Positions 8,684 to 39,616 of a DNA stretch of 40,503 nt are shown one piece after another. Source of the DNA: Candidatus Bipolaricaulota bacterium (GTDB taxonomy: Bacteria > Bipolaricaulota > Bipolaricaulia > RBG-16-55-9 > DRXL01); contig JAOAIA010000002.1 in assembly GCA_026414955.1 (NCBI GenBank), positions 1-40,503 on the forward strand, read 5' to 3'. The translations under genes were made by a program, and so were the position numbers. The notes under the pieces are model-generated. The model made no database searches. It was not told where the DNA came from and was given only the letters and a program-made list of their open reading frames with translations. Every line of letters begins with the position of its first letter. Position 1 is the first letter of the stretch.

Positions 8684-8766
8684 AGCACACCTCCACAGCA
8701 CAAAGAGCGTGGTCTTTGCAGGATGAGCTGCGCCGGAACAGTCTGAGTTATGAAGGAGAGTAGTAT

Positions 8767-8850
8767 TTAGGGCCGGAAGGCCCCAAAGAAGAAGGAGGCG
8801 ACAAAGAACGAGAGCGAAGACCATTGTGCGGTGAAGCCTTTGTGCAACAT
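8767..8850 (-). CDS. Candidate leader peptide [27 protein letters not shown] (27 aa; 7 Phe, 1 Trp) in the aro operon leader
   Basis: AGGAGG (8859-8864) lies 8 nt upstream of the ATG at 8850. Stop TAA at 8767-8769. The uORF lies between the predicted promoter and the DAHPS start. Confidence 0.45.
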
Positions 8851-8881
8851 ACCTATCGCCTCCTGTTTGCGAAGTGGCTGT

Positions 8882-8910
8882 ATCATAGCACGATTTTTCT
8901 CGGTTGTCAA
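8882..8910 (-). promoter_or_regulatory. Sigma70-type promoter TTGACA-17-TATGAT for the aro operon
   Basis: On the plus strand, tgtcaa at 8905-8910 and atcata at 8882-8887. This predicts a leader of about 190 nt. Confidence 0.6.
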
Positions 8911-8933
8911 GGGAGGGGGGGTCTATCTTAGTT

Positions 8934-8961
8934 TTGTCTTTTGCCCGCACCTGAGTATAAT
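8934..8961 (+). promoter_or_regulatory. Promoter TTGTCT-16-TATAAT for uvrB; the -10 ends 10 nt before the ATG and there is no SD
   Basis: TTGTCT at 8934-8939, TATAAT at 8956-8961, ATG at 8972. Confidence 0.55.
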
Positions 8962-8971
8962 CACTACGACG

Positions 8972-10972
8972 ATGAGCACCCTGACCGATACGAGAGAATT
9001 CCAGCTTGTTTCGCCGTTTGCGCCGCGCGGCGACCAGCCGAAAGCCATCAAAGAACTGACGGAAGGACTGCGCGCCGGCTTGCAGCATCAGACACTGCTG
9101 GGCGTCACCGGCTCCGGCAAGACGTTCACTATTGCGCACGTCATCCAGAACGTTCAAAAACCGACTCTCGTCATCGCCCATAACAAGACGCTCGCGGCCC
9201 AGCTCTGCAACGAGTTTCGCGAATTTTTCCCGCACAACGCCGTACACTACTTCGTCAGTTATTATGACTACTATCAGCCCGAAGCGTATATCCCCCAGAC
9301 GGATACGTACATCGAGAAAGACGCTTCGATTAACGACGAAATAGACCGGCTGCGCCATGCAGCAACCAGCGCGCTCTTAGAACGCAGAGACGTGATCATC
9401 GTCGCGAGCGTCTCGTGCATCTATGGGCTGGGCACGCCCGGCGAGTACGCAGCTATGACCTTAGCGTTGCGCACGGGCGCGACCATCTCGCGCGACGAGA
9501 TCTTACACAAACTTGTCGAACTTCAGTACGAGCGCAACGAGATCGGCTTCGGTCGGGGGACTTTTCGCGCCAAGGGCGACACGATTGAAGTCATCCCGGC
9601 TTATAGCGAGAACGCCATCAGAATCGAACTCTTCGGCGACGAGATCGAGCGCATCTCCGAGCTGGACGCGCTCACGGGCAAGCGCCTGCGCGACTTAGAT
9701 TTCACGGTGGTCTACCCCGCAACGCACTGGGTCACCGGGAGAGAGAAGCTGGAGCGTGCCATTGAGTCTATTCGCGCCGAACTCGAAGAGCGCCTCACCG
9801 AGCTGCACCGTGCGGGGAAGCTCTTGGAAGCGCAGCGTCTGGAGCAACGCACCAAGTACGATCTAGAGATGCTGTGCGAGCTGGGCTACTGTTCTGGAAT
9901 CGAGAACTATTCGCGGCACTTGGACGGGCGCAGGCCCGGCGAGCCGCCCTGCACGCTGATAGACTACTTCCCCAAAGATTTCCTGATGGTCATTGACGAA
10001 TCTCACCAGACGATCCCCCAGATTCGCGGCATGTACAACGGGGATCGCTCGCGCAAGGAAGTCTTAATAGAATACGGCTTTCGGCTGCCGTCGGCGCTCG
10101 ACAACCGTCCGTTGAAGTTTGAGGAGTTCGAGCGCAAGATGAATCAAGTTATTTATGTCTCCGCGACGCCAGGGCCGTATGAGCGTGCCAAGAGCCAGAA
10201 GATCGTGGAGCAGATCATTCGGCCTACGGGTCTTGTTGACCCCGAAGTCGTCGTGCGCCCGGTGCAGGGACAGATTGACGATCTGATTGACGAGATCAGA
10301 GAAGTGACGAGCCGTAGTGAGCGCGTCTTGGTGACGACGCTGACCAAGAAGATGGCTGAAGACTTAACAGAATATCTGACAGAGCTTGGGATTAAGGCGC
10401 AGTACTTGCACTCCGAGATCGAAACACTCGATCGTGTGGATATTCTCTATGATCTGCGCGTGGGAGAATTTGACGTCTTGGTCGGGGTGAACTTGTTACG
10501 CGAGGGGCTTGATCTTCCAGAAGTCTCGCTCGTGGCGATCTTAGACGCCGACAAAGAAGGGTTCTTACGCTCGGAGACTTCGCTCATTCAGACGATTGGG
10601 CGAGCGGCGCGCAACGTGCGCGGCAGAGTCATTCTTTACGCAGACAACGTGACCGGCTCGATGAAGCGGGCAATCGCTGAGACGCAGCGTCGTAGAAAAC
10701 TTCAGCTTGAGTACAACGAGCGGCACGGGATCACGCCGGAGACGGTGAAGAAAGCGATCAGAGAGTTTATGCCGGAGCTTGCTCGCGAGAGCAAAGAGAA
10801 GAGAGCCAAGAAGAAGCTGACGGTGAAGACACCAGCGGAGTTAGCTGATCTCATCAAAGAGCTAGAGCAAGAGATGTACGCTGCTGCCAAGCGTCTCGAA
10901 TTCGAGAAGGCTGCGAAGCTGCGCGATGAGATCAAAGAGTTGAGACAAGAGCTGATTGGGGTTTCGAGCTGA
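8972..10972 (+). CDS. uvrB: Excinuclease ABC subunit B
   Basis: [19 protein letters not shown], the helicase motifs, and the C-terminal UVR domain ([16 protein letters not shown]). Start trimmed to the ATG at 8972 ([16 protein letters not shown]). Confidence 0.97.
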
Positions 10973-17274: not shown

Positions 17275-19440
17275 TTAGGCTACCTGCGGCGTTGGGGAGG
17301 GAGGCACCAGCGAGTCTTTCAGCAGCGCGTCGAGCTGCTCGCCCTCCAGCACTTCGACTTCTAAGAGTCGCTTGGCGAGCTTGTGCAGGGCTTGGATGTT
17401 GCGCTGCAGCAGCTCCTTGGCGCGCTTGTAGCACGATTCAATGATATTCTTGATCTCTTCGTCCACGAGCGCCGACATCTTCTCGCTGTGCTCACGATTC
17501 AAGACCAAATCCACCCCTAAGAAGACGTTGCCGTTCTCCTGCCCCAAGTTAATGGGGCCGACGCGCTCGCTCATGCCGTAGCTGACTACCATACGCTTCG
17601 CGATCTCGGTCGTCTTCTTGAGGTCATCATACGCCCCGGTAGAAATCTCCCCGAAGATGATCTCTTCCGCCGCGCGGCCTCCTAAGATCCCCGTCATGCG
17701 ATCTAACAGCTCTTCTTTCGTGAAGAGATACTTATCGTTCAGTGGGAGCTGGAGCGTATACCCCAACGCTTCGCCACGCGGGACAATCGAAATCCTGTGC
17801 ACGGGATCGGCCTTGGGGAGAAGCTTGCCCAAGAGAGCGTGCCCCGCCTCGTGATAGGCAATTTTGACTTTCTCTTCTTCGCTGAGGAGTCTCCCCTTGC
17901 GCTCGATCCCCGCGATCACGCGATCTATCGCGTCCTCGAAGTCTTTCATATCTATAACTTCTTTGTTGCGTCTGGCAGCCAAGAGCGCCGCCTCGTTGCA
18001 GAGATTTTCTAAATCTGCTCCGACGAACCCCGGCGTGCGCCGCGCTAAGACCTTCAAGTCGACATCGGGGGCGAGCTTCTTGTTTTTGACGTGCACCTTG
18101 AGAATCGCTTCGCGGCCCTTGGAGTCCGGCGCGGGGACTGTAATCTTGCGATCAAATCGCCCTGGACGCAAGAGGGCCATATCTAAGATATCAGGGCGAT
18201 TCGTTGCCGCTAAGATAATCACGTGCTCGTTCTTGTCGAAGCCGTCCATCTCAGAGAGTAACTGATTCAGAGTTTGCTCGCGCTCGTCGTGGCCGCCGCC
18301 GATCCCCGCGCCGCGCTTGCGGCCGACCGCGTCTATCTCGTCAATGAAGATGATCACGCCGCGCTTGCCCTTGCCCTCCTCTTTAGCTCTTCTAAAGAGA
18401 TCGCGCACGCGGGCTGCGCCCACGCCCACGAACATCTCCACAAAGTCCGACCCCGAGATCGAGAAGAAGGGCACGTCGGCTTCACCGGCGATAGCGCGGG
18501 CTAAGAGCGTCTTGCCCGTCCCCGGCGGACCGACTAAGAGCACCCCCTTGGGGATCTGCGCGCCGATGCGCGTGAATTTTTGGGGGTCTTTCAGATAGTC
18601 TACGATCTCTTGGACTTCTTCTTTGACTTCGTCAATGCCCGCGACATCGTCGAACGTGACGCGCGAGTACTCTTTGGTGACTAACTTCGCTTGGCTGCGG
18701 CCAAAGTTTAGGGCGCTGCTGCCCTCCCCTTGCATCCGGCGCATCATCCCGTACCAGAGCAACAAGATAATGAAGAACGGCAGCAGCGAGATCAGGACCG
18801 AAAAGATCCATGATGAGTCGCTCGAACCCTCGAAGCTCACCATGACTTTGTTGTTCTGCAATGCTTCAAGAAGCGAATCGCTGATGACGACCTCGGTGCG
18901 GAAGCGTTCGGCTGTTCCTAAGACCCTCTGCATCAGGGCACTGATCTCGTCAGCTCTTTCTTTGCGAGCGCGCACGAGCGCATCCAGCGCACGCTCTATA
19001 CTATCGGCCCGCAGAGCCAAGCCAACCATCTGGCGTTGGAGGGCGTGTTCGGTCGCGGGCGCGGGAAACTCGTGGCGGAGCGCCTCCAGCCACGCGAGCC
19101 GGCGCCCCTGTAGCTCCAGGAGCTGGTGCACGCTGCTTCTGCGCTGTTGCTCGCGCTGGATCTGCGCATCGAGCGAGAGAAGCTGCTCGTTCTCGCTGAT
19201 GGGCCGCACCCGCCCTGTCGCCGTGGCTAATCCTGGCCCCTTGATCGTGACAGTTGTCACTTGGCCGGCTTCTACTAATGCGAGAAATTCGGTGTACCGA
19301 ATCTGCTTCTCTGCAGAATCGGAGGTTCCCAAGAACGATTGCAACAAAATCACAGAGAAGATCACCACAACGATCACCAACGCGATAGTGCGGAAATTGC
19401 GGCTTCGTCTCTGCTGCTCGTCATCATTGGGGAAGTTCAA
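17275..19440 (-). CDS. ftsH: ATP-dependent zinc metalloprotease FtsH with an expanded extracytoplasmic domain
   Basis: [13 protein letters not shown], the DEID Walker B motif and HEAGHAL. Proposed TTG start at 19440, 7 nt downstream of GAGGAGG. The tracked start at 19506 has no SD. Confidence 0.93.
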
Positions 19441-19477
19441 CCTACATCCTCCTCGTCGAAATACTCCTGCACACTTT

Positions 19478-19506
19478 ATTCTAGCACGTTGGGGGGGAAT
19501 ATTCAA
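19478..19506 (-). promoter_or_regulatory. Promoter TTGAAT-17-TAGAAT for ftsH
   Basis: On the plus strand, attcaa at 19501-19506 and attcta at 19478-19483. Confidence 0.5.
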
Positions 19507-20461: not shown

Positions 20462-21196
20462 CTAGGGGGAGAGCACAACTGTCACGGAGAGTTCATCTTG
20501 CGCGGAAGGGGACGTCGCCTGCACTGTGAACTGCCCAGGCGCTAGCTCTGCCTTCGCTAAGGGTTTGACCATCAGCTCGACGACTTTGCTCTCGCCAGGC
20601 GCAAGCGTGAGAGCGCGTTCTCGGAGGCGAAACTGCCACTCCCGGGGCGCTGCCGTCACTGCTATGGAGACACGAACCGACACGTTCCCTCGATTGGCTA
20701 CGGTCAAGGGCACGATCTTCTCTGCGTTAGGATGGACGATGAGATCGGGGGAAGCAAGAGCGAGTCTGAGGCGCTCGCGAGCGCGTACCACGATCTCGCT
20801 CCGGCCTACGGCAAACAAGGAGCCGCTTTGGGCACGCACAGTGAGTGAATACCGTCCTGGCGGAGTTGCCGGCGGAATCTGCACCGTGACAAAGAACTCC
20901 TCCTGAGCGTGAGGACCGAGAGTGACGTTCTGGAGCGCGTCGAGCAGTTCCCAGCCGGTTGGGGCTTCAGCGTACAGCTCGTAAGAACGCTCTTGATCGC
21001 TGAGATTGTGCAACGTGAAGACGACCGTCACAAAATCATCGGGATCGCTCTCTAGGACCCTGTTGACAGGGGAGAGTCTGAGCGGGCCAGTGCTCTCCTC
21101 GTATTGAACTGAAGATCTCTTCCAAGCCCATAGAGCACCGGCTGCGATCAGTATTCCTATAAGAATAATCGCCCTAACGAGAAGGCGTTTGGTCAT
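20462..21196 (-). CDS. N-terminally membrane-anchored protein with two Ig-like (NEW3/CARDB-like) repeats; last gene of the surface operon
   Basis: TM helix AIILIGILIAAGALWAW. The repeat signature ...PGRYSLTVRAQS / ...PGQFTVQATS also occurs in the upstream 976-aa protein. ATGA overlap with that gene. Confidence 0.7.
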   Translation of the reverse strand: MTKRLLVRAIILIGILIAAGALWAWKRSSVQYEESTGPLRLSPVNRVLESDPDDFVTVVFTLHNLSDQERSYELYAEAPTGWELLDALQNVTLGPHAQEEFFVTVQIPPATPPGRYSLTVRAQSGSLFAVGRSEIVVRARERLRLALASPDLIVHPNAEKIVPLTVANRGNVSVRVSIAVTAAPREWQFRLRERALTLAPGESKVVELMVKPLAKAELAPGQFTVQATSPSAQDELSVTVVLSP

Positions 21197-24123
21197 GGTC
21201 GCACGGGAACTATCTTCGTGATAGAATTCTGCAGATCGTCGTTATCGGTGACAGTGAGCTTGACGAGGAAGTCCCCAGCGCGCGTGAAGATATACTCGAC
21301 GATCTTGCCCACAGCATCGGCTGTGCCGTCACCAGTGAAGTCCCACTCGTACTTCACGATCTGTCCATCGCTATCCGTGGACGCTGAAGCGTCAAAGACG
21401 ACGCGCTCGCCGACTCTGGGCTGAGCCGGGGTGAACGTAAAATCAGCTATCGGCGCGAAGAGCACGGGGCGGGGGACTTCGTAAGCACCGAAATCTATAG
21501 TGATGGTCTGCCCCATCTGTACCGAGATGGTGACGCTGAGCGGCGTCGTCGGCTCGTAGCGCTTGGGCAGCGTCGTACGATCTACTGTTACGGTGTAGCT
21601 TCCTGGTGGTACTTGCAGCACGTACTGCCCATCGGCGCCGGAGCGTGTTTCAATGCTTGTCATGCCGACGGCAAAGACCCGCACGTTCGCTAAGCCGAGT
21701 TCGTCGGGATCAGCTTGGCCATTGCGGTTCTTGTCGTCGAAGACCCGCCCGCGAATGATAGCTACAGAGCGCATGGGGATCTCAAGAGTAACGATCTGCC
21801 CGATAGCCACGGTCACAGGGATCGGGGTGGGGACAGTAGCTACCAATCCCAGCGGCGCCCGCGCGATCTCGACCCTGTAGACGCCGGGATCAACTGGCGG
21901 GAACCGGAAGTATCCTTGAGCGTCGGTGCGTGCCAACTGATTATCTAGGCGCAAGAGGGCATCTTTGACGCCGGGCTCGCCTAGGTCGCGTTGGCCGTTA
22001 TTATTGGTGTCTATATAGAGATAGCCCTCGACGCGCCCTTTGATAATCACGGACTCGAAGGGCATAGCAAACTTCGTGCGTATCTCAATATTGAAGTTCA
22101 GCGATGACGGCTCGGTGAACGCAAACCCAAACGAGGCGCTCACCGGCCCAAAGAGCGTTGCGCTGAACGACCCAAAGTAGCTCGAAAAGAACGGGTAGAG
22201 CAGATTGCTATTGATTCCTAGCAACAAGAACACAGAGATGCGCGCGGTCGTGAACGCTATCCGTCCGATAAACGTCACCTGGTGATCGAGCGTCGTATTG
22301 GTATTGGGGTCGACTTGAAAAGTGCTCTTCGCGCTTAAGTTGAGTGACAGTCCTTCAATGCCCAACAAGGGACGGGTGATGAGCACGCTGATGAGCTCAA
22401 ACGTATCGGTGTTATTCGCGGGATTGAGATTATCCCGGAAGAGATTGCTTTGGAACGTCAGAATATAGCTAATGGGGCTGGCGATATCGGCAATCGTCAG
22501 GGATTTGATATCTTCGTCGGTGCTGAGAGGAGGGAACGGCGGATCGTTGCTGCGCCGCGAGATGAATTTGATATCGAAGAAAATACTGGGCCATCCCGCC
22601 AAGAAGCTGCGTATAGTCAAGCGCCCCTGCGACGTGATCGAGGTAACTTCTTGGACAGTGGGATCGCCGAAAAGATCGGTCCTCTTTCCGGAGACGAGCG
22701 CGTTAAACCCCAGGGCTCCCACGGAGCTGTTTCCAAAGAGCGACCAGATCCGGGTATCGGCTATAACCGCGGGCACGCCGATCAAGCTTGGGAAATCCGG
22801 CTCAACGCGCAAATATTCTCCACCAAGCGTTACCCCAAAGAACGAGGGTGCCGCGCGCAGGAAGACCATTCGCCGTAAGCCCGCGCTTACTTCAGCGACC
22901 GCTCCTTCGACGGAGAGCACACCGCTGCGGAAGTTGGCCGCTGTAAGTATGTATGGAGTAGTACTGGAGACGCTCAGCCGCGCCAGCGATGCGCGTATGC
23001 TTGGCCCATGGAAGTTCAGGACCATCGCGCGCTGTTCTTGGATGAAGTCTCCATCTTGATCTTCAAACGTCGCCATGAGCGAGAAGAGATCTGTAAACCC
23101 CACCTCGACGCCGCGGCGCGGCAGCAGATTGTAGACCAAGGGCGATTGCGGGAGATCGCCCAGCTGGGTAAAGAACGTCTCGCGTTGGGATGTGAAGAGA
23201 AACTCCTTTACGCTGATAGGCAGCCCTGAGGGGATCTGGGAGCGCACAATGTCCGAGACGGTGATCTTTAAGCTGAAGCGTTGCTCTTCTGGCAGCGTCG
23301 CATAGGTGAGAAACGAGATGAGCGGCGTCAGGGCACTGCCACTCAAAGCGACGTTGGCTCCTACAGAGAGCTCTGCTGGGGCTTGCAGGTGGAGCGCCGT
23401 AGGGACTTTTGCAGCTTCTGGCGGGAGAACGATGAGCGTTGTGGCCCCGTTGGCTTGCACCCCTTCATGGCGCAGCGAGATCGCTGTCAGCGTGACTGGC
23501 TCAAAGCCTGATGGGGCATCTCCAGGGATCTGGACGGTGACGAGGACCGAGCGCGTCTCGCCAGGGAGCAGCTCGACGAGCCCAGGCTCGACTCTTGTCG
23601 AAAATCCTCGTGGCGTGAACGCGTCAAGCCGAAAGGCGTCTATGACGTTGCCCCGATTGGTCACGCTGAACGTCAGAATGATTTCGGTGCCAGGATCGAC
23701 TTCTTGAGGATCTGGGGCACGCACGATGACCCCAGCGGTCTTCTCGACAGTGATCGTCGTCTGGGCTTTGGTCCTGAGTGATGGATCAGATTGGGAGACG
23801 GCTTCGAGCGCGACGGTGTACCTTCCTGCGGGCGTCTCTTGCACGATAAGCAGCGTGACGAAGACCGGCTCTTGGGCACCGGGGGCGATCGTGAGGGGTG
23901 GCAGAGCGCCAAGGATCTGAAAACCTCGCGGAGCCTCGACCGAGAAGAGATACGTATCTGAAGCCGTCCCACGATTGATCGCCATGAACGTTAGAGTAAC
24001 GATATCGCCGGGCAGGGCTGAGCGTGGCGGCGGCGCGATCAGCTCGATGGGCTGCCCTTGACCAAGAACTGTGAGAGCCCCTAAGAGCACAAGCGCGATC
24101 CCCGCACACGCCCGCTTCAGCAT
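21193..24123 (-). CDS. 976-aa secreted multidomain protein: 2 NEW3/CARDB-like repeats, a ~450-aa beta-rich central region, 2 SdrD-B/CarboxypepD_reg-like repeats, and a PKD domain
   Basis: Signal peptide. Repeats with PAGRYTVALEAVS. GYLYIDTNNNGQRDLGEPGV and GRVFDDKNRNGQADPDELGL. The PKD-like segment is FTFTPAQPRVGERVVFDASASTDSDGQIVKYEWDFGDG-type. SD GGAGG lies upstream. Confidence 0.75.
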   Translation of the reverse strand: MLKRACAGIALVLLGALTVLGQGQPIELIAPPPRSALPGDIVTLTFMAINRGTASDTYLFSVEAPRGFQILGALPPLTIAPGAQEPVFVTLLIVQETPAGRYTVALEAVSQSDPSLRTKAQTTITVEKTAGVIVRAPDPQEVDPGTEIILTFSVTNRGNVIDAFRLDAFTPRGFSTRVEPGLVELLPGETRSVLVTVQIPGDAPSGFEPVTLTAISLRHEGVQANGATTLIVLPPEAAKVPTALHLQAPAELSVGANVALSGSALTPLISFLTYATLPEEQRFSLKITVSDIVRSQIPSGLPISVKEFLFTSQRETFFTQLGDLPQSPLVYNLLPRRGVEVGFTDLFSLMATFEDQDGDFIQEQRAMVLNFHGPSIRASLARLSVSSTTPYILTAANFRSGVLSVEGAVAEVSAGLRRMVFLRAAPSFFGVTLGGEYLRVEPDFPSLIGVPAVIADTRIWSLFGNSSVGALGFNALVSGKRTDLFGDPTVQEVTSITSQGRLTIRSFLAGWPSIFFDIKFISRRSNDPPFPPLSTDEDIKSLTIADIASPISYILTFQSNLFRDNLNPANNTDTFELISVLITRPLLGIEGLSLNLSAKSTFQVDPNTNTTLDHQVTFIGRIAFTTARISVFLLLGINSNLLYPFFSSYFGSFSATLFGPVSASFGFAFTEPSSLNFNIEIRTKFAMPFESVIIKGRVEGYLYIDTNNNGQRDLGEPGVKDALLRLDNQLARTDAQGYFRFPPVDPGVYRVEIARAPLGLVATVPTPIPVTVAIGQIVTLEIPMRSVAIIRGRVFDDKNRNGQADPDELGLANVRVFAVGMTSIETRSGADGQYVLQVPPGSYTVTVDRTTLPKRYEPTTPLSVTISVQMGQTITIDFGAYEVPRPVLFAPIADFTFTPAQPRVGERVVFDASASTDSDGQIVKYEWDFTGDGTADAVGKIVEYIFTRAGDFLVKLTVTDNDDLQNSITKIVPVRP

Positions 24124-24143
24124 AGTGCCTCCTTGCTTTTTTT

Positions 24144-24962
24144 TTATTTAAGCTGAAATCGCACCTGCCCAGCAACTAAGACGTCGCCACCAAAATCAAT
24201 GATTACAAGAGCTAAGTACGTCCCCGGCGTCAGCTTCTCTGTGACCGGGATCTCCAAGCGCTGCTTGCCGCCAGGGAGCACGGCCATATCTTCACCCTTC
24301 TTCTGGACGACGATCTCGCCCTTGGTGTTGACGATGCGTAGCTGTGTCTTTGCGGTCTGGAATGTCGTCCCAGTGTTCTCGTACTCGACGACGATGCGCA
24401 AGGGCTTGTCGCGCTCCGGCAGAAGCGCTTGGACGCTGAGAATCCGCCCGCGATTGACAGCGTTCGTCGGGTCGGTGTGCCGAATCTTGACGATAAACTG
24501 CTCAGCCGTCCCAATGGTGACTGGGATGGACGGCTGCTGCCCCGATGGGGGCGGCGGTTGAGCGCCTGACGACGGTGCTGGGCTTGTTATAGCCAGAGCT
24601 GCCCAGTGTGGCCCACGCTCCGTCGCGGGAATCTCGACCTTGAACGTGATGACTTGCTTCTGCTTGGGTGCAAGCGTAAACTGCGCTAGCGTAAACGATA
24701 AGAACTTGGCGAGCGAGCGCGGATGCGTCCCAGGGTTCAGCAAAACCAAGCCACCCTCGATATTTCTATCATAGTCTTTGAGTTCGACGGTAAACTCGCG
24801 TGGCTGATTGCTGTTGTTGATGACTTCAAACCCGCCGGTGAAGCTCCCGCCAGGGGGCAGATTTATATCTATACTGAGCGTAGAGATCCCGATCTGGCCT
24901 TGCGCCAGCAGCCCGCTTGCTAATATGAGCACGAAACTCAAGAGAATCTTTCGCATGAACAC
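24144..24962 (-). CDS. Secreted two-Ig-domain protein, chaperone-like or DUF916/DUF3324-like
   Basis: Signal peptide MRKILLSFVLILASGLLAQG. Two beta-sandwich-like halves joined by a Pro/Gly linker. Tracked GTG start at 24962, alternative ATG at 24956. Confidence 0.7.
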   Translation of the reverse strand: MFMRKILLSFVLILASGLLAQGQIGISTLSIDINLPPGGSFTGGFEVINNSNQPREFTVELKDYDRNIEGGLVLLNPGTHPRSLAKFLSFTLAQFTLAPKQKQVITFKVEIPATERGPHWAALAITSPAPSSGAQPPPPSGQQPSIPVTIGTAEQFIVKIRHTDPTNAVNRGRILSVQALLPERDKPLRIVVEYENTGTTFQTAKTQLRIVNTKGEIVVQKKGEDMAVLPGGKQRLEIPVTEKLTPGTYLALVIIDFGGDVLVAGQVRFQLK

Positions 24963-24972
24963 TCACGCTCCT

Positions 24973-25905
24973 TTACGGACAGGGCACGCCTTGGTCGTCG
25001 ATCGAGTAATCAAGATTAAACTGATATGGACCGATCTTGCCGTCGCCAAAGCTTGCTAAGAGTACACGTTGATCAACAGTCACGGTGATGCCTCCGGCGG
25101 GCGTAGGAGCCCCCTGGCCGACTACGACGCTTGAGCCGCCAGGTTGCCAATTGCCTAGATAATCTCTGATCTGCAGAGCATTAGCAGTGGGATCATCGGC
25201 GCCAGGGGGATAGCTATAAGCATTGACCTTGGCGCAGACGCGCCAGTTGCGCGTCGCGACGACTTGGAGCGTTGTCTGGCCGATGAACGGCACGATGCCG
25301 TTCTCAACTTGGGAAGCGCTCGTGACGTTGGCCGAGAGCGCTGTACCAGAGATCACCGAGACAGTCATCACGTCTTGGTATTCGATGGTGATGCGCACGG
25401 CGTCAACATACGCAGTGTTTGTAGAGCCGAGCTTGGACAAGCGCACCCCGAAGTTCGCACTATTGATATCAGCAGCAGTCCATGAAGTCCCCCACAGATC
25501 TGTAGGGCCGCCTACAGTACGGAAAGCGCTTGTGCTGCAGCCGGTCTGCCCCGCGATGCCGTAGATATCTTGAGTATTGCCCACGGGAGACCCGCCCTTG
25601 AGCAAGCGCACGCGGACCCCTTCATTTGACGTGGTCGCGGCCATGTCGACTTCCACCGTGATGCCCTGGATGACGGCTGCATCGGGGATGGTGAAACCAA
25701 AGCCTGTCAGATCGAGAGAGCCGCCGCCAGCTCCAGTGCGTTCGGCACATGTGTTGTCTGGAGTTCCTATAGCAGCGCTGGCGTTAGACCACCCTGTGGC
25801 TGCATACGTGCTAGCATAGTTTGGCCCTTGGGAGACGGCTTGCACTAATAGACTCCCGAGTGTGACAGCTAGGACAAGAGTCCCTATAGCTCGGAAGAGG
25901 TTCAT
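24973..25905 (-). CDS. 310-aa secreted protein; its C-terminal half is distantly related to the three small paralogs (candidate tip/adaptor subunit)
   Basis: Signal peptide. NWRVCAKVN compares with TWGCNVDS in the paralogs. The C-terminal GPYQFNLDYSIDD compares with GVINYSVTDSTP. Confidence 0.7.
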   Translation of the reverse strand: MNLFRAIGTLVLAVTLGSLLVQAVSQGPNYASTYAATGWSNASAAIGTPDNTCAERTGAGGGSLDLTGFGFTIPDAAVIQGITVEVDMAATTSNEGVRVRLLKGGSPVGNTQDIYGIAGQTGCSTSAFRTVGGPTDLWGTSWTAADINSANFGVRLSKLGSTNTAYVDAVRITIEYQDVMTVSVISGTALSANVTSASQVENGIVPFIGQTTLQVVATRNWRVCAKVNAYSYPPGADDPTANALQIRDYLGNWQPGGSSVVVGQGAPTPAGGITVTVDQRVLLASFGDGKIGPYQFNLDYSIDDQGVPCP

Positions 25906-25914
25906 CGTTGTCTC

Positions 25915-26442
25915 CTACGGGGTTATGTCCGTCGTCGTGAAGAGAATGACGCCGATATAAAATCCTGGCAGTTTGCTGACATCCCAGGATCGAATATCTA
26001 AGAAGATCTCGCCCATAAAGTCTGCGCCATCTAAGCCTGCGGTGTTCTGTCCGGAGCCGCGACGATTCTGGGGATCGGGCTCCGACAGCGAAGTCCTATC
26101 GGTACACTCGCCGAAGTCATCGGCAAAATCACAGTCGGTGAGAAAGTCCTCTGGGCCAGCGTCGAAGATATTCGTATCTATAGTCACGATCGACGAATTG
26201 AGTCTATACGGCGTGAGCGCGTCGATATTGACGTGCCAGTCGCCGATCTTGAACGGCTGTGGCCCTTCGACCTCTTGCAAGGTGATCTCTGCCGTGATAG
26301 AAGGGATCACGGCGGCAATAAAGAGCGGCTGAGGGATGACGAGCGTCACGCGCACGTTCTGGCTCGTCTGGGCTAGGCTCCCCCAGCCGAGCAAGGCTAT
26401 CACTAGCGCCATAGCTCCAGCGGCCTTCGCCCTTTTCTTCAT
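25915..26442 (-). CDS. Small secreted protein, paralog 3 of 3 (2 Cys)
   Basis: Aligns along its length with the 26482 and 27072 products: QPFKIGDWHVNIDALT, DFLTDC...GEC, NTAGLDGADF and the C-terminal GVILFTTTDITP. Confidence 0.8.
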   Translation of the reverse strand: MKKRAKAAGAMALVIALLGWGSLAQTSQNVRVTLVIPQPLFIAAVIPSITAEITLQEVEGPQPFKIGDWHVNIDALTPYRLNSSIVTIDTNIFDAGPEDFLTDCDFADDFGECTDRTSLSEPDPQNRRGSGQNTAGLDGADFMGEIFLDIRSWDVSKLPGFYIGVILFTTTDITP

Positions 26443-26481
26443 AGAGCTCTCCCATCCCCAAATATAGCGAAAGGCCGCGAG

Positions 26482-27036
26482 CTAGGGAGTAGTATCCGTC
26501 ACTGTGTAGGTAATGATTCCGGTCACGTAGACCGGGAGCTGCGAAGACATGACGTCCCAGCCCCCAGGGCCAACCCCCATGTTCACGAAGACGTCCCCAG
26601 CAAAGTCTGCCCCGTTTGTCCCAGCGGTGTTGTAGCCTATGCCGCGCCGGGTGTTGGGGTCGACGTCCCCAAGGGTCAGAGACGAGTTGGGCGCGCACGC
26701 CCCATAGTCGTCAGCTGTATCGCAATCAGCGGTGAAGTCTGAGGTATCAGCGTTGACGACAAAGGGCGCAGAGAACGACGTGAACTGAGAGTTAAGTCTA
26801 TACTGCGTTACGGCATCGACATTACAGCCCCAGTCGCCGATATCAATGGGCTGTGGCGCTTCAATATCGCTCTGTAAGACGACGTAATAAATATCTCCAG
26901 GCTGATCCGGCGGCACACAGTCCAAGTAGAGCGACTGTCCAATCTCGATTGTGACGTTTTGTTGAGCGACAAGCCCCGCTGAGAGGGAGAGCCCCAATAC
27001 TCCACCAAGCACCGCGACGAGCAGCTTTCTGATCAT
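26482..27036 (-). CDS. Small secreted protein, paralog 2 of 3 (4 Cys)
   Basis: QSLYLDC, IGDWGCNVDAVT, FTADC..GAC, NTAGTNGADF and the C-terminal GIITYTVTDTTP. SD GGAGG lies upstream. Confidence 0.8.
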   Translation of the reverse strand: MIRKLLVAVLGGVLGLSLSAGLVAQQNVTIEIGQSLYLDCVPPDQPGDIYYVVLQSDIEAPQPIDIGDWGCNVDAVTQYRLNSQFTSFSAPFVVNADTSDFTADCDTADDYGACAPNSSLTLGDVDPNTRRGIGYNTAGTNGADFAGDVFVNMGVGPGGWDVMSSQLPVYVTGIITYTVTDTTP

Positions 27037-27071
27037 GATGCAGGCCTCCTTTGCAAAATTTTTGTCGTCTG

Positions 27072-27596
27072 CTATGGCGTTGAGTCCGTGACTGAGTAGT
27101 TAATCACTCCGCTGACGCTGCGGCTGGGCGGGATAGCTCGGACATCCCAGTCGCTTACGTTGAGTCGGACGTTTCCACTGAAGTCAGCGCCTGGGGTTCC
27201 GGCGGTGTTGCCACCGCTACCTAGGGTGATCGGCCCGAACGTACCCCCTGGGCCGCAGCTAGGGCTGCCACCACCGCTTGCTGACGTGCATGTTTCGGAG
27301 AAGTCGTCCGCGCTCGCGTTGACAATGTCAGCTGTAGATGTCATGGTCATATTCGCGCTGAGCTCAAAGTTCGTCAATGAATCGACGTTGCAGCCCCATG
27401 TCCCAATAGTGAACGGTTGAGTCCCTTCGATGTCAGCCTGGGTAACGGTGTAATTGATCGGTAGGGAAGCAGAGCAGTCCAGATAGAGGGACTGATTGAC
27501 GTTGATTGTGACGGTCTGCGATGTCTGGGAGAGACCTCCAACCCAACCTAGCGACAGGGCGAGCAAGAAGACTGTGACAGGCTTGATATAGCGCAT
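27072..27596 (-). CDS. Small secreted protein, paralog 1 of 3 (4 Cys); first gene after the consensus promoter
   Basis: QSLYLDC, IGTWGCNVDSLT, FSETC..PSC, NTAGTPGADF and the C-terminal GVINYSVTDSTP. SD AGGAGG lies 6 nt upstream of the ATG. Confidence 0.8.
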   Translation of the reverse strand: MRYIKPVTVFLLALSLGWVGGLSQTSQTVTINVNQSLYLDCSASLPINYTVTQADIEGTQPFTIGTWGCNVDSLTNFELSANMTMTSTADIVNASADDFSETCTSASGGGSPSCGPGGTFGPITLGSGGNTAGTPGADFSGNVRLNVSDWDVRAIPPSRSVSGVINYSVTDSTP

Positions 27597-27639
27597 GAGC
27601 TACCTCCTTCGGCCAATGTTTTTGTTGTTTCAGGTTAGG

Positions 27640-27668
27640 ATTATAACATAAAAGAGGGGGATTGTCAA
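27640..27668 (-). promoter_or_regulatory. Perfect consensus sigma70 promoter TTGACA-17-TATAAT for the surface operon
   Basis: On the plus strand, tgtcaa at 27663-27668 and attata at 27640-27645. It is followed by an A/C-rich ~37-nt leader and AGGAGG. Confidence 0.75.
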
Positions 27669-27755
27669 GGAGGGATAGCAGGGGGACATACAATGTAATG
27701 TATATCACTTATAGTTCTTATATTTTAGTCTAATGACACTCAATTCTGGGATCTT

Positions 27756-28178
27756 CTACCGGTACTCGATCTTGAAGTCCTCCCAGAAGTTCAGGGTATA
27801 GATTGGATTTCCAGAGCGCGGGTCGGTGCCGGTTCGGATGAGCTTCCCCTCAAAGACGAGATTGCGCCGAGCCAGGAAGCACTCGGGGCTCCCCCCTTGC
27901 TTGAGCGCCACGATCAATCGTACTGGCCTGGAGAAGTCTATACGCTGAGCCACCCCTTGGGGAATGACGAACTCCGCACGATCGCTGGACTCCACTATGG
28001 CATCGAAGTTCCCGATCGCCTCGTTCCCCTGGAAGGCCACGATGATCAACGTAGCCCTGCGACAGAGCATATCAATCTCTTCGATGCGAATCGTATGCCC
28101 GGGGATGACCTTGGGGCAACCCGTTAGGATCACGGCCAGGATCGGAATCAAAAACAAAACATAGCGTTTTGCACCCAT
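27756..28178 (-). CDS. Small lipoprotein of unknown function
   Basis: Lipobox LTGC after a hydrophobic signal (MGAKRYVLFLIPILAVILTGC). SD GGAGGAGG lies upstream. Confidence 0.7.
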   Translation of the reverse strand: MGAKRYVLFLIPILAVILTGCPKVIPGHTIRIEEIDMLCRRATLIIVAFQGNEAIGNFDAIVESSDRAEFVIPQGVAQRIDFSRPVRLIVALKQGGSPECFLARRNLVFEGKLIRTGTDPRSGNPIYTLNFWEDFKIEYR

Positions 28179-28213: not shown

Positions 28214-28242
28214 ATTATACTTATGCAGGCTAATCTTTTCAA
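28214..28242 (-). promoter_or_regulatory. Promoter TTGAAA-17-TATAAT for the lipoprotein gene
   Basis: On the plus strand, tttcaa at 28237-28242 and attata at 28214-28219. Confidence 0.6.
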
Positions 28243-32285: not shown

Positions 32286-32314
32286 TTGTCAGGTATGGGT
32301 GAGTCTGCTATAAT
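32286..32314 (+). promoter_or_regulatory. Promoter TTGTCA-17-TATAAT for the DUF151 nuclease-pgk pair
   Basis: TTGTCA at 32286-32291 and TATAAT at 32309-32314. Confidence 0.65.
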
Positions 32315-34077: not shown

Positions 34078-34106
34078 TTGTCACGGGAGAGAGAACGTGC
34101 TATAAT
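34078..34106 (+). promoter_or_regulatory. Promoter TTGTCA-17-TATAAT for tRNA-Gly
   Basis: TTGTCA at 34078-34083 and TATAAT at 34101-34106. The tRNA starts at 34116. Confidence 0.7.
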
Positions 34107-35176: not shown

Positions 35177-35205
35177 TTGACAAGCCAAGTCCGTCGTGTT
35201 AAAAT
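35177..35205 (+). promoter_or_regulatory. Promoter TTGACA-17-TAAAAT for tRNA-Leu, with an ~88-nt structured leader
   Basis: TTGACA at 35177-35182 and TAAAAT at 35200-35205. Confidence 0.6.
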
Positions 35206-37344: not shown

Positions 37345-37785
37345 ATGGACTTGCTCATCAGGCTCAAACGCGAGATCGCTGGATTGGACTTCTCACAGAC
37401 TGTGCAGAAGACCGTCTCGTTCTTGCGCAAGAACATCGCGCACTATAACTGGGTCGGCGTCTACATGCTCGAAGGCAACGAGTTGGTCTTAACAGCCTGG
37501 GACGGTCCCGAAGCGACCCAACACACAAGAATCCCCATTGGCACAGGCATCTGCGGGCTGGCCGCACGAGAGAAACGAACTGTTATCGTCGGCGACGTCA
37601 ATGCCGACTCCAGATACCTGGCGTGCTTCCCTTACACGAAATCCGAGATCGTCGTGCCCATCTTCAAAGATTCAAAAGTGCTCGGCGAGATTGACATTGA
37701 CAGCAACACGCTGAACGCGTTCACAGAGAGAGATAGGGAATTCTTAGAAAGCGTCGCTGCGCTGCTAGGAGAGAGATATGTCTGA
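37345..37785 (+). CDS. GAF domain protein (free methionine-R-sulfoxide reductase-like)
   Basis: WVGVYML, GICGLAAREKRTVIVGDVNADSRYLAC and SEIVVPI...GEIDIDS. Confidence 0.85.
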   Translation: MDLLIRLKREIAGLDFSQTVQKTVSFLRKNIAHYNWVGVYMLEGNELVLTAWDGPEATQHTRIPIGTGICGLAAREKRTVIVGDVNADSRYLACFPYTKSEIVVPIFKDSKVLGEIDIDSNTLNAFTERDREFLESVAALLGERYV

Positions 37786-39616
37786 GACAAATAAGGCCGA
37801 ACGCTACGTGCTCGACACGAGCGTCATCGTGGACGGGCGCATCACCGAGGGGATTCGTCAGAACAGATTCCCCAACGCCGTGTTCATCGTGCCCAACGCC
37901 GTGCTGGCGCTCCTGGAAGCCCGAGCCGTCCGTGGCCAGGAGACGGGCTACGCTGGGCTTAGCGAACTGAAGCGATTGCAGCAACTCGCGTGGGAGGGGC
38001 AGATCGAGCTGGTCTTCAAGGGGGACCGGCCACGGTTCGATCCGTTGCGCTTGGAGGAGACTGGCGAACTCCATGCGATGGTCCGCGCCGTCGCTGAAGA
38101 AGAGAACGCTGTGCTCTTGACGAGCAGCCGCAGCCAAGCGCTCGTCAGCGAAGCCCAGGGGCTTCCCATGCAGTTTTTGGGAGCTACAACTGATAGCCGC
38201 GGGCTGGAACAACTCTCGATCATGCAGTTCTTCGATGACCAGACGATGTCAGTGCACCTACGAGCCAAGACGCGTCCCAGGGCCAAGCGCGGCGCTCCCG
38301 GTCGGATGAAGGTCATCGCCCTCCGAGATGAGCCGATGACCGAAAAAGAATTAGAACGAATCGCCCGCGAGATCGTAGAAGTTGCTAAGGGCCATCCCGA
38401 GGGGTTCATCGAGATGGATGCAGGGGGCAGCACGGTCGTCCAGCTCAAGAACTTGCGCATCGCGATTGCGCGTCCGCCCTTCAGCGACGCGCTCGAAATT
38501 ACCGTGGTGCGCCCCGTGGTGCACAAGAAGCTCGACGAGTATCGCTATGCAGATTTGCTGAAGGAGCGGCTGCGCGAGCGCTCGCGCGGTGTGCTCGTCT
38601 CCGGGGCGCCGGGGGCGGGCAAGTCGACGTTCGTGCAGGGGATCGCCGAGTATCTGCAAGAATCGGGCTGGATTCTCAAGACGATGGAGAAGCCCAGGGA
38701 CTTGGAGCTTTCCGAGGATATTACTCAGTATACGGCCCTCAACGGCGAGATGAAGAAGACCGCCGATGTCTTGCTCTTGGTGCGCCCCGACTACACGATC
38801 TTCGACGAGATGCGCGTGGATGAAGACTTCGAGGTCTTCGCCGACATGCGTCTGGCGGGCGTGGGGATGATCGGCGTGGTGCACGCCACGCGGGGCATTG
38901 ATGCCGTGCAGAGACTGATCGGCCGTGTTGATTTGGGGATGATCCCCCAAGTTGTAGACACGGTTGTCTTCATCGAAGATGGCGATGTGAAAGAGATCTA
39001 CGAGGTCGAGTTCACCGTCAAAGTCCCTAGCGGGATGGGCGACACAGACCTAGCTCGCCCGGTCATCGAGATTCGCGAGTTTGAGTCCAAAGCGTTGGTC
39101 TATGAGATTTATAGCTTTGGTGAGCAAGTCGTGGTGATGCCGGTCAAAGAAGTCGTGAGCGAGAAGCCCGTCTGGAGGTTGGCAACTCAAGCATTGGAGT
39201 ATGAGCTACGGCGCGTGATCCGTGGGCCGTTTACGGTCGAGATTCGCTCGGACAATCAAGCGACGCTCTACGTTGACGAAGAGCAAATCCCGATGATCTT
39301 GGGGCGCGGGGGCAGTCGCATCCGAGAGCTCGAAGCTGAGCTAGGGATCGGGCTGGACGTGCGCTCGTATGATGAGATGGAGATGACGCTCCACCAAGAC
39401 ATAGATATCGAAGTGAGTGACCGGCACGTGATTTTAGACTTAGACCCGTCCCTGCGCGGGCGAAATATCGAGATTTTAGTAGACGGGGAACCGGTCTTCA
39501 TCGGGTCGGTCTCGCGCACGGGGAGCATCAAATTAGTACGAGGGAGCGAGCCAGCAGAGAGAATTTATGAAGCGCACAAATCGGGCGGGATGATCCGCGT
39601 GCGGCGGGCGGGCTAA
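37778..39616 (+). CDS. PIN domain / PilT-family ATPase / C-terminal KH domain protein (COG1855-like)
   Basis: N-terminal PIN (YVLDTSVIVDGRI), Walker A GAPGAGKST, and a KH-like segment ILGRGGSRIRELE. It overlaps the GAF gene by 8 nt. Confidence 0.8.
   Translation: MSETNKAERYVLDTSVIVDGRITEGIRQNRFPNAVFIVPNAVLALLEARAVRGQETGYAGLSELKRLQQLAWEGQIELVFKGDRPRFDPLRLEETGELHAMVRAVAEEENAVLLTSSRSQALVSEAQGLPMQFLGATTDSRGLEQLSIMQFFDDQTMSVHLRAKTRPRAKRGAPGRMKVIALRDEPMTEKELERIAREIVEVAKGHPEGFIEMDAGGSTVVQLKNLRIAIARPPFSDALEITVVRPVVHKKLDEYRYADLLKERLRERSRGVLVSGAPGAGKSTFVQGIAEYLQESGWILKTMEKPRDLELSEDITQYTALNGEMKKTADVLLLVRPDYTIFDEMRVDEDFEVFADMRLAGVGMIGVVHATRGIDAVQRLIGRVDLGMIPQVVDTVVFIEDGDVKEIYEVEFTVKVPSGMGDTDLARPVIEIREFESKALVYEIYSFGEQVVVMPVKEVVSEKPVWRLATQALEYELRRVIRGPFTVEIRSDNQATLYVDEEQIPMILGRGGSRIRELEAELGIGLDVRSYDEMEMTLHQDIDIEVSDRHVILDLDPSLRGRNIEILVDGEPVFIGSVSRTGSIKLVRGSEPAERIYEAHKSGGMIRVRRAG

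Follow-up and report, generated by a model that had tools for sequence, protein, structure and literature searches.

What do seven tightly packed genes for secreted proteins build at the surface of an uncultivated hot-spring bacterium of the Bipolaricaulota (Acetothermia)? The question is raised by a stretch of 40,503 nucleotides (contig JAOAIA010000002.1 of assembly GCA_026414955.1, Candidatus Bipolaricaulota bacterium; the whole stretch is hereafter called the window). On its minus strand, from 27596 to 20462, seven co-directional open reading frames (ORFs) encode, in order, proteins of 174, 184, 175, 310, 272, 976 and 244 amino acids (aa), all with an N-terminal signal sequence. A sequence-only reading of this DNA had proposed that they form an undescribed operon for the assembly of a surface fibre or adhesin. 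We argue that the operon, on balance, probably encodes a divergent chaperone-usher-like pathway that builds a pilus by donor-strand exchange, analogous and possibly distantly homologous to the chaperone-usher systems, and that it appears to be the missing set of assembly genes for the TLP-1 fibrils. The whole analysis was performed in silico and draws on gene structure, homologies, predicted folds and the conservation of gene order; from these we infer where the proteins reside, that strands are exchanged, that a polymer forms and what each protein does.

The first three genes, like the other genes of the operon on the minus strand, encode subunit 1 (174 aa, 27072-27596), subunit 2 (184 aa, 26482-27036), which is the most conserved of the paralogues, and subunit 3 (175 aa, 25915-26442). 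Their products share 43-45% identity (phmmer E 1e-27 to 1e-37), which bears out the three tandem secreted paralogues of about 175 aa described earlier. Common to them are the motifs W-x-C-N-V-D and G-x-G-x-NTAG, a C-terminal Y-x-V-T-D-x-T-P (YSVTDSTP in subunit 1) and four conserved cysteines, all present in subunit 1, with the first pair missing from subunit 3. In all three, a Sec signal peptide precedes a predicted mature N-terminus that has an invariant Gln, and the N-terminal strand (QQNVTIEI...) is conserved. In subunit 2, Q25 and Q26 are invariant, and the N-terminal segment is unpaired in the AlphaFold2 (AF2) model of the monomer (mean predicted local distance difference test, pLDDT, of 87). 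Residues 25-35 of this subunit, QQNVTIEIGQS (26932-26964), are the predicted donor strand, given the conserved mature N-terminus and the likeness to the TLP-1 strand discussed below. The three paralogues match no model in Pfam or NCBIfam. An exhaustive HMMER search with the three-paralogue profile gave 18 matches in 1.84 billion representative proteins; the strong ones (E <= 1e-10) belong to the family itself, the remainder consists of short fragments and, in a few cases, of longer unrelated proteins that match weakly and in part, and none of the 18 carries a WxL, pilin or TasA family assignment.

The fourth gene (24973-25905) encodes a 310-aa protein with an N-terminal domain (~25411-25827) and a C-terminal domain of subunit type (24976-25410). 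That its C-terminal half is a divergent subunit had been proposed from the letters alone, and a direct hhalign comparison with the three-paralogue profile gave no match. In distant loci, however, the places of the subunits are taken by small secreted proteins that stand alone, and to these the C-terminal ~150 residues are homologous (phmmer E 1e-8 to 1e-24); a profile of this broader family matches the three-paralogue profile with an hhalign probability (Prob) of 97.1% (E 7.5e-11, 144 columns). The three paralogues and the C-terminal half of the 310-aa protein therefore form one subunit superfamily, as proposed, and the 310-aa protein is a two-domain member of it and a candidate tip adhesin. 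No Pfam family matches any of 31 members of the superfamily, nor the 310-aa protein; Fimbrial and SCPU are thus, by sequence, not their families, and Peptidase_M73/TasA finds no match among the subunit proteins.

The predicted fold of the subunits leads to fibres. When the AF2 model of subunit 2 was compared with the PDB by Foldseek, the top matches were the TasA fibre, CS20 pilin, FimA, TLP-1a and the PapG pilin domain, accompanied by CanA cannulae, TLP-1b, FimI/FimA, the Sulfolobus thread and AbpA bundling pili; almost all of them belong to fibres whose subunits join by donor-strand exchange. The E-values, 1.6e-3 (8aur, TasA fibre) and upward, are weak, and the TM-scores to the model are highest for TLP-1b (0.45) and TLP-1a (0.43), with a probability of 0.99. 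By sequence, the three-paralogue profile finds nothing in the PDB, and the subunit profiles were negative against an alignment of nine pilins (hhalign). The superfamily profile, run against 177,635 PDB sequences, has only two significant matches, 9ikj_A (TLP-1, E 1.1e-3) and 9ikk_A (TLP-2, E 2.8e-3).

The names TLP-1a and TLP-1b denote 8-nm tubular fibrils from pond water, solved by electron cryo-microscopy (cryo-EM) in the CryoSeek work (PDB 9IKJ/9IKK; PMC11494351). Polymerisation proceeds by strand insertion, protomer n receiving the N-terminal strand of protomer n+4, and this segment is, according to the authors, unpaired in a model of the monomer (PMC11494351). The alignment between the superfamily and TLP-1 starts at exactly this N-terminal donor strand (EQNVTVTMDLQ), and by eye the TLP-1 stretch EQNVTVTMDLQPVLQLGM...VDWCLYAAA lines up with QQNVTIEIGQSLYLDC...DWGCNVDAV of subunit 2, so the QQNVTIEI strand of subunit 2 would be the counterpart of the TLP-1 donor strand. 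TLP-1 protomers and window subunits alike are secreted, carry the N-terminal strand right after the signal peptide and share a W-containing strand; they differ in that the former have ~240 aa with long extra loops, whereas the latter have ~150 aa when mature and two probable disulfides. The genes, host species and assembly route of TLP-1 were not known when the structures were published, the best predicted-structure match of the authors being a Flavobacteriales bacterium (PMC11494351), and a follow-up of 2025 gives no gene cluster. No gene cluster or assembly machinery for this fibre type is described in the literature that we searched. The word undescribed in the sequence-only reading thus holds for the genes, host and machinery, but not for the fibre type as such, given the related TLP-1a/b fibrils.

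Genes for TLP-1-like proteins were located by scanning JGI metagenomes with the TLP-1a sequence taken from the PDB alignment, which yielded 30 loci at 38-58% identity. The hidden Markov model (HMM) of the family that we labelled G matches the TLP-1-like ORFs with E 1e-6 to 9e-10. On the long metagenome contigs L046, L056, L059, L064 and L068, and on the shorter L060 and L073, a paralogue (hhalign 98.2%) comes after the TLP-1-like gene, and next a gene for a protein of ~1180 aa, which has an N-terminal FixG_C/NPCBM_assoc immunoglobulin (Ig) domain, a long unannotated core, SdrD_B and CarboxypepD_reg, that is, the architecture of the 976-aa protein of the window. The two align at an hhalign probability of 97.9% over a region that starts where the barrel ends and takes in the C-terminal domains. 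TonB, Plug and Usher domains are absent from the ~1180-aa proteins, and the lack of Plug and TonB_dep_Rec excludes a SusC/TonB-type identity for them. Six contigs extend far enough upstream to be informative, and four of these encode, ahead of the TLP-1-like gene, a protein homologous to the 272-aa one (HMM E 1e-27 to 1e-29; hhalign 99.5%, E 3.3e-22, 245 columns; 94.9% to WxLIP). Genes near the TLP-1-like loci carry C-terminal tails of the type IX secretion system (T9SS) type, and together with the Flavobacteriales structure match these point to Bacteroidota as the source of the contigs, whereas the host of the window belongs to the Bipolaricaulota. Given the kinship of the subunits and the shared neighbourhood, a member of the superfamily from this type of cluster has already been observed as an extracellular donor-strand-exchange pilus.

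The Bacteroidota-type loci are not copies of the window operon. They lack genes of the 310-aa and 244-aa types and add two conserved genes near the barrel-type gene, for a ~530-aa protein ending in ...NLIFDIEF... and a ~370-aa lipoprotein with a lipobox-like LTSC or FSC (e.g., L064:14326-15918 and L064:15932-17041). These stand just after the barrel-type gene in L056, L064 and L068, and in L046 the ~530-aa gene lies upstream on the opposite strand. No counterpart of either was detected in the window, though a small lipoprotein gene adjoins the operon there.

The fifth gene (24144-24962) encodes the 272-aa secreted two-Ig protein, our candidate for a periplasmic chaperone, which the sequence-only reading had called DUF916/DUF3324-like. 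The comparison set, drawn from Enterococcus, Listeria, Lactococcus and Lactiplantibacillus plasmids, comprised six annotated WxLIP proteins and seven annotated WxL proteins. Against the six WxLIPs the 272-aa family aligns over both domains, DUF916 and DUF3324, with an hhalign probability of 97% (E 1.2e-10, 217 columns), and still with 96.8% after trimming of the signal peptides. A profile of 24 homologues, searched against solved structures, found its best match in the Enterococcus faecium WxLIP EfmWxLIP1 (9i25_C, 9i1y_A; E 2e-4), for which the PDB holds the entries 9i25 and 9i1y. Pfam returns sub-threshold matches only (WxLIP_PGBD, A2M_BRD, fn3_5), with WxLIP_PGBD in 11 of the 24 members at a best E of 2.6e-4. 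The homology to WxLIP, judged on these alignments, is solid. Unlike WxLIP, the 272-aa protein has no C-terminal hydrophobic helix or basic tail, and it ends 12 residues past the motif IIDFGGD.

A second relationship is suggestive. Six PapD-like chaperones align with the 272-aa family in register over both domains (hhalign Prob 59.6%, E 9e-5, 202 columns); after signal-peptide trimming the probability falls to 18% at a score of 30.1, the maximum of 30 column shuffles being 20.7. Aligned with each other, WxLIP and the PapD-like chaperones score at background level. Pfam PapD_N is found in two of the 24 members with E 0.035 or weaker, and two hallmarks of PapD-like chaperones have apparent counterparts in the 272-aa protein, LPqDRESLFW in IPxxExGPHW and INDYG in IIDFGGD.

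A variant of the two-Ig protein with a C-terminal dockerin/EF-hand-like repeat (FDxDNDGxVD...) occurs in L024:9932-11020, L025:9983-11044, L031:2406-3764, L032:91-2391 and L033:9872-10954. A small subunit-like gene adjoins it in L025 and L033, a gene for a ~810-aa membrane protein in L031-L033, and no barrel gene follows directly. This variant may represent a different mode of assembly or anchoring.

The sixth gene (21193-24123) encodes the 976-aa protein, a candidate usher-like pore of the outer membrane. Two N-terminal Ig-like domains of NPCBM_assoc/FixG_C type (residues ~25-216, 23476-24051; Pfam, AF2) precede a central core (residues ~245-690, 22054-23391) for which AF2 and DSSP give a beta-barrel of ~25 long antiparallel strands joined by short turns, and three C-terminal beta-sandwiches follow (21208-22038), comprising two SdrD_B/CarboxypepD_reg domains (21469-22038) and a PKD domain (21208-21456) according to Pfam. 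Residues ~225-695 have no Pfam match, in agreement with the earlier description of adhesin-type repeats around a core of ~450 aa. Many strands of the core alternate between hydrophobic and polar residues, and the last one, SLNFNIEIRTKF, ends in Phe in the manner of a beta-signal; distant homologues have barrel sequences rich in Tyr, Trp and Gly and an (R/K)F-x-(L/M)P-x-P motif after the barrel.

In Foldseek the best full-length matches of the 976-aa model are FimD and PapC (E 1.7e-12 to 6e-9), led by FimD 3rfz_B (E 1.7e-12, 926 columns); within the top nine are FimD 3rfz_B, 9fw9_D and 9fxs_D and PapC 7lhh_C and 7lhg_C. Later matches include LptD, BtuB, MOMP, OccK, Omp32 and SlpA, and about 20 of the top 50 are outer-membrane barrels. 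The sequence-only reading had found no recognisable usher, which stands as far as sequence goes, while by predicted fold the 976-aa protein would be the usher-like component. An exact-sequence lookup of this protein returned no record.

The seventh gene (20462-21196), whose start overlaps the stop of the sixth, encodes the 244-aa protein, with a hydrophobic N-terminal anchor (residues 5-25) and two Ig domains, as the earlier reading had it. These domains are 32% identical (E 2e-18) to residues 38-198 of the 976-aa protein, which makes the 244-aa protein a membrane-anchored paralogue of the N-terminal Ig pair of its neighbour. The ATGA overlap, read directly from the sequence, suggests translational coupling of the two genes.

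The sequence-only reading would have lost ground if its cluster were not kept as a unit, and a check of gene order found it kept in many genomes, far beyond chance. The full order, in which one to six small subunits are followed by a two-domain subunit of ~310 aa, then by the two-Ig protein, the barrel protein and finally the anchored Ig protein, is preserved across Bipolaricaulota and in metagenome-assembled genomes (MAGs) labelled Fraserbacteria (L004, L005, L008-L016, L023, L026; all phylum labels of MAGs are the submitters' own). A gene of the 244-aa type follows the barrel gene in L001, L004, L008-L016, L020, L023 and L026. The two-Ig gene with the barrel gene behind it occurs, in addition, in MAGs that carry the labels Deltaproteobacteria (L021), Bacillota (L028) and Cloacimonadota (L029), as well as in others. 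That two-Ig, barrel and subunit genes stay together in different phyla, and at the TLP-1 loci too, speaks for a functional unit.

Rearranged forms were also observed. In one Bipolaricaulota lineage (L001:5916-12415, also L002 and L003) the segment of subunit and two-Ig genes is inverted relative to the barrel and 244-aa genes, and of the subunit genes there remain only one for a small subunit and one for a 163-aa version of the 310-aa protein without the N-terminal domain, with a gene for a 140-aa lipoprotein still adjacent. In distant relatives, ~410-aa secreted beta-rich proteins are encoded beside the cluster (L018:4257-5492, L018:6898-8118, L006:5199-6443); they end in Phe (...LTINF, ...LTVSF, ...RVRVSF) and look like separate outer-membrane barrels of porin type.

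Taken as a chaperone-usher-like pathway, the operon would work as follows. Sec would export all products, and in the periplasm the 272-aa protein would bind unassembled subunits by donating a beta-strand to their incomplete sandwich. Such strand donation is established for PapD-like chaperones and predicted for WxLIP, the Gram-positive homologue, which would complete the WxL sandwich in this way (PMC10599100). The 976-aa protein would form an outer-membrane barrel of roughly 24 strands, with flanking Ig-like domains that recruit the chaperone-subunit complexes; at the pore the N-terminal strand (QQNVTIEI...) of the next subunit would replace the chaperone strand, and the fibre would be threaded outwards. 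The 310-aa protein may serve as tip adhesin or initiator and the three paralogues as segments of the shaft or as adaptors, and the 244-aa protein would have an accessory role, perhaps at the inner membrane, in capture or tethering.

The parallel with the chaperone-usher systems (Fim/Pap and the archaic Csu/CupE) lies in the logic of paralogous subunits, a two-domain tip-like subunit, a two-Ig protein and a predicted barrel with sandwich domains on either side. The top fold matches of the subunit include pilins, weakly, and the two-Ig protein adds a weak PapD-like signal with matching motifs; subunit folds, the usher-like fold of the 976-aa protein and the two-Ig homology together support the chaperone-usher-like logic first read from the gene order. 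The systems differ in that the window products stay below the Pfam thresholds for Usher, PapD_N/C, Fimbrial and SCPU, that the flanking domains are PapC_N and PapC_C in ushers but NPCBM_assoc, SdrD_B and PKD in the 976-aa protein, and that the window has an additional membrane-anchored Ig protein. The profile searches that had been proposed, with WxL, usher and SCPU models, gave no Pfam membership and do not place the operon in a characterised system by sequence. By defining sequence features the operon is outside the chaperone-usher, WxL and TasA families; it would work like the first, while the second has one of its components in common with it and the third its fold class. Cyanobacterial CT pili (PMC12397347) were considered as a relative and rejected, as their pilin fold and cluster differ.

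Several observations weigh against a chaperone-usher-like pathway. The barrel model, built from an alignment of 16 sequences, has moderate confidence (mean pLDDT 68, predicted TM-score 0.35), and no plug domain is resolved in it, residues 263-335 having pLDDT <50. A barrel-only PapC entry scores no better in Foldseek than BtuB or porins, so the usher likeness rests on the whole architecture of a large barrel with sandwich domains. At the sequence level the barrel core is tied to no usher and to no solved protein: among 13 diverse homologues that represent the 976-aa protein, none matches Usher or any outer-membrane-protein family in Pfam, the hhalign probabilities of the family and of its core against FimD alone and against an alignment of four ushers are below 5%, and the core profile finds nothing among the PDB sequences. 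TLP-1 itself reaches an hhalign probability of 35% with the three paralogues and 72% with the broader family, in the N-terminal region only, and its link to the three paralogues is indirect, through the family of the 310-aa C-terminal domain. TasA-like and archaeal fibres of the same fold class, moreover, assemble without chaperone or usher.

Given the WxLIP homology, the operon could instead specify a two-membrane counterpart of the WxL/WxLIP (Csc) complex of Lactobacillales and Bacillales, in which the small proteins and the 272-aa protein form a non-polymerising scaffold on the peptidoglycan or envelope and the 976-aa protein is an outer-membrane adhesin or tether that displays SdrD_B and PKD domains. 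We regard this as unlikely. The composition of several small proteins, one larger protein with an N-terminal domain added and a two-Ig protein does mirror small WxL, large WxL and WxLIP, the partner of WxLIP is likewise predicted to have its sandwich completed by a donated strand (PMC10599100), and YxVTDxTP resembles the distal WxL motif TWxLxDxP. Both subunit profiles, however, reach hhalign probabilities below 8% with the seven WxL proteins, over the signal peptide only, and have no Pfam WxL match, and the WxL profile recognises no chain among the PDB sequences. The likeness to WxL/Csc loci seen by the sequence-only reading thus stands for the two-Ig protein, a true DUF916/DUF3324 homologue, and falls for the subunits, which are not WxL proteins by any sequence test; it is confined to the 272-aa partner, the cluster logic and an analogy at the level of motifs. 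WxL clusters encode at least two WxL-domain proteins with dual Trp-x-Leu motifs, a WxLIP transmembrane helix and an LPXTG protein, all three missing from the window operon, and the relatives of the subunits (TLP-1) are proven polymers, the nearest folds being fibre subunits.

The envelope of the host bears on this comparison as well. WxL/Csc hosts are single-membrane Bacillota, whereas the window comes from a bacterium with two membranes, with its peptidoglycan inside the periplasm, and encodes a large predicted barrel protein that WxL clusters lack. Near-identical and more distant homologues of the operon genes occur in MAGs of Candidatus Bipolaricaulota/Acetothermia, including Acetithermum autotrophicum. 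The outer membrane of this phylum, which agrees with the diderm host assumed earlier, resembles the toga of Thermotogae and has Omp-alpha/Omp-beta tethers (bioRxiv 10.1101/2021.05.31.446380), and cryo-EM of the first isolate revealed an outer membrane, an S-layer and a few pili (bioRxiv 10.1101/2025.11.21.689855). An earlier genome study of the phylum did not recognise genes for pili, fimbriae or adhesins (PMC6092417).

Another explanation, to which we give an equally low chance, is that the subunits form a chaperone-free, self-assembling matrix fibre in the style of TasA or archaeal bundling pili that leaves the cell by some other route, the 272-aa protein being a TapA-like nucleator or inhibitor and the 976-aa protein an unrelated, co-transcribed porin or adhesin. 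TasA/TapA, AbpA bundling pili, Sulfolobus threads and CanA are the best or near-best fold matches of the subunit (8aur, 7pnb, 7ueg, 9h8b), several of them chaperone-free archaeal fibres with the TasA fibre at the top; the TasA-like proteins share the beta-sandwich and polymerise through an N-terminal donor strand, and the barrel core has no sequence link to ushers. TasA systems, however, assemble without a two-Ig chaperone or an outer-membrane pore, and the window operon is devoid of SipW-like, TapA-like, peptidase or other secretion genes. The adjacency of two-Ig, barrel and subunit genes is kept across phyla, including the TLP-1 loci, and in a cell with two membranes folded subunits need a conduit through the outer one, for which the operon supplies a large predicted barrel. 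Very improbable, finally, is a reading of the small proteins as components of an S-layer or toga sheath anchored by the barrel protein in the outer membrane, for which speak the very strong promoter, the hexagonal S-layer on the toga of the first isolate (bioRxiv 10.1101/2025.11.21.689855) and weak matches of the 976-aa and 244-aa proteins to NCBIfam 'putative S-layer protein' and choice-of-anchor models, but against which stand the lack of SLH or known S-layer domains, a subunit fold class and TLP-1 relationship that point to helical fibres, and a set of several heterologous subunits with a tip-like two-domain protein that is typical of pili. A chaperone-usher-like pathway accounts better than any of these three explanations for the TLP-1 link and for the conserved adjacency of the barrel gene.

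If that pathway is accepted, a wider and more tentative reading can be speculated upon, to which we give distinctly less than an even chance. This type of cluster would be the biogenesis machinery of TLP-1-type pili and a third, ancient and widespread chaperone-usher-like branch of two-membrane bacteria that extends from Bipolaricaulota to Bacteroidota, with a chaperone that is a direct homologue of WxLIP; the WxL/WxLIP systems of Bacillota would be what remained of such a pilus system once the outer membrane had been lost, and a single origin would be common to PapD-like chaperones, WxLIP and the 272-aa family. We see a credible chance that the operon links PapD-like chaperones, WxLIP and TLP-1 pili. 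TLP-1, an orphan structure, gains a candidate gene cluster and an assembly pathway that can be tested, and if the pathway is real, fibre assembly by a chaperone and an outer-membrane pore extends to deep-branching, toga-bearing bacteria. The operon also connects a Gram-positive surface system, that of WxLIP, to one with an outer-membrane pore, which bears on how surface machinery changes when the outer membrane is lost. Three new families could be described from the operon, since neither the subunits nor the two-Ig protein nor the barrel core is annotated.

The layout of the operon is compact. The intergenic gaps are, in order, 35, 39, 9, 10, 20 and -4 nt, and no notable RNA structures were found in the intergenic regions. 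An extended sigma-70 promoter (27640-27668, minus strand), TTGACA-17-TATAAT with a TG extension and 12 of 12 consensus positions, lies ~44 nt upstream of the start of subunit 1, the ATG of which is preceded by a strong GGAGG ribosome-binding site. This is the one perfect sigma-70 consensus in the whole 40.5-kb window, where 0.06 sites with no more than one mismatch would be expected and six occur; the other five, at 11/12 and with 17-nt spacers, are located at 8882-8910, 28214-28242, 32286-32314, 34078-34106 and 35177-35205. On the strength of these sites the organism evidently uses textbook consensus promoters. Just upstream of the operon, and behind its own 11/12 promoter (28214-28242), a gene on the same strand (27756-28178) encodes a 140-aa lipoprotein with the lipobox LTGC, which may be an accessory; it adjoins the cluster in L001-L003, L008-L012 and L014 and not in L004, L005, L015 and L016. 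The eight ORFs of the sequence-only reading, the seven and this one, were recovered on the minus strand at their coordinates, and its account of tight, co-directional spacing behind a perfect promoter, of a separately promoted lipoprotein gene and of a lack of LPXTG/sortase and type IV prepilin motifs in the operon products (by motif check) agrees with what we find.

The surroundings are ordinary. The base composition of the locus is unremarkable, and the operon lies among housekeeping genes (shikimate pathway, UvrB, DXR, FtsH, GlmS and acetyl-CoA synthetase); an origin from a mobile element was rejected, given this composition and the same housekeeping neighbours in relatives. The FtsH homologue (17275-19506, minus strand, 743 aa from a TTG start) has an unusually long extracytoplasmic insertion between the first membrane segment and the AAA domain, rich in Gln, Arg, Glu and Leu and of coiled-coil appearance. 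At 37345-39616 on the plus strand, a GAF-domain gene overlaps the start of a gene for a 612-aa ATPase of T2SSE/PilB type, an arrangement in synteny with L001 and L002, and the presence of this ATPase gene points to part of a second appendage system in the organism, of the type IV pilus or type II secretion-like kind. The longest ORFs for DAHP synthase (7628-9358, minus strand) and UvrB (8831-10972, plus strand) overlap head to head by ~530 nt; their Pfam matches start at about residue 226 and residue 64, respectively, so that translation of both probably begins well downstream of the first start codon in frame. The near-consensus promoter at 8882-8910 on the minus strand sits within this overlap.

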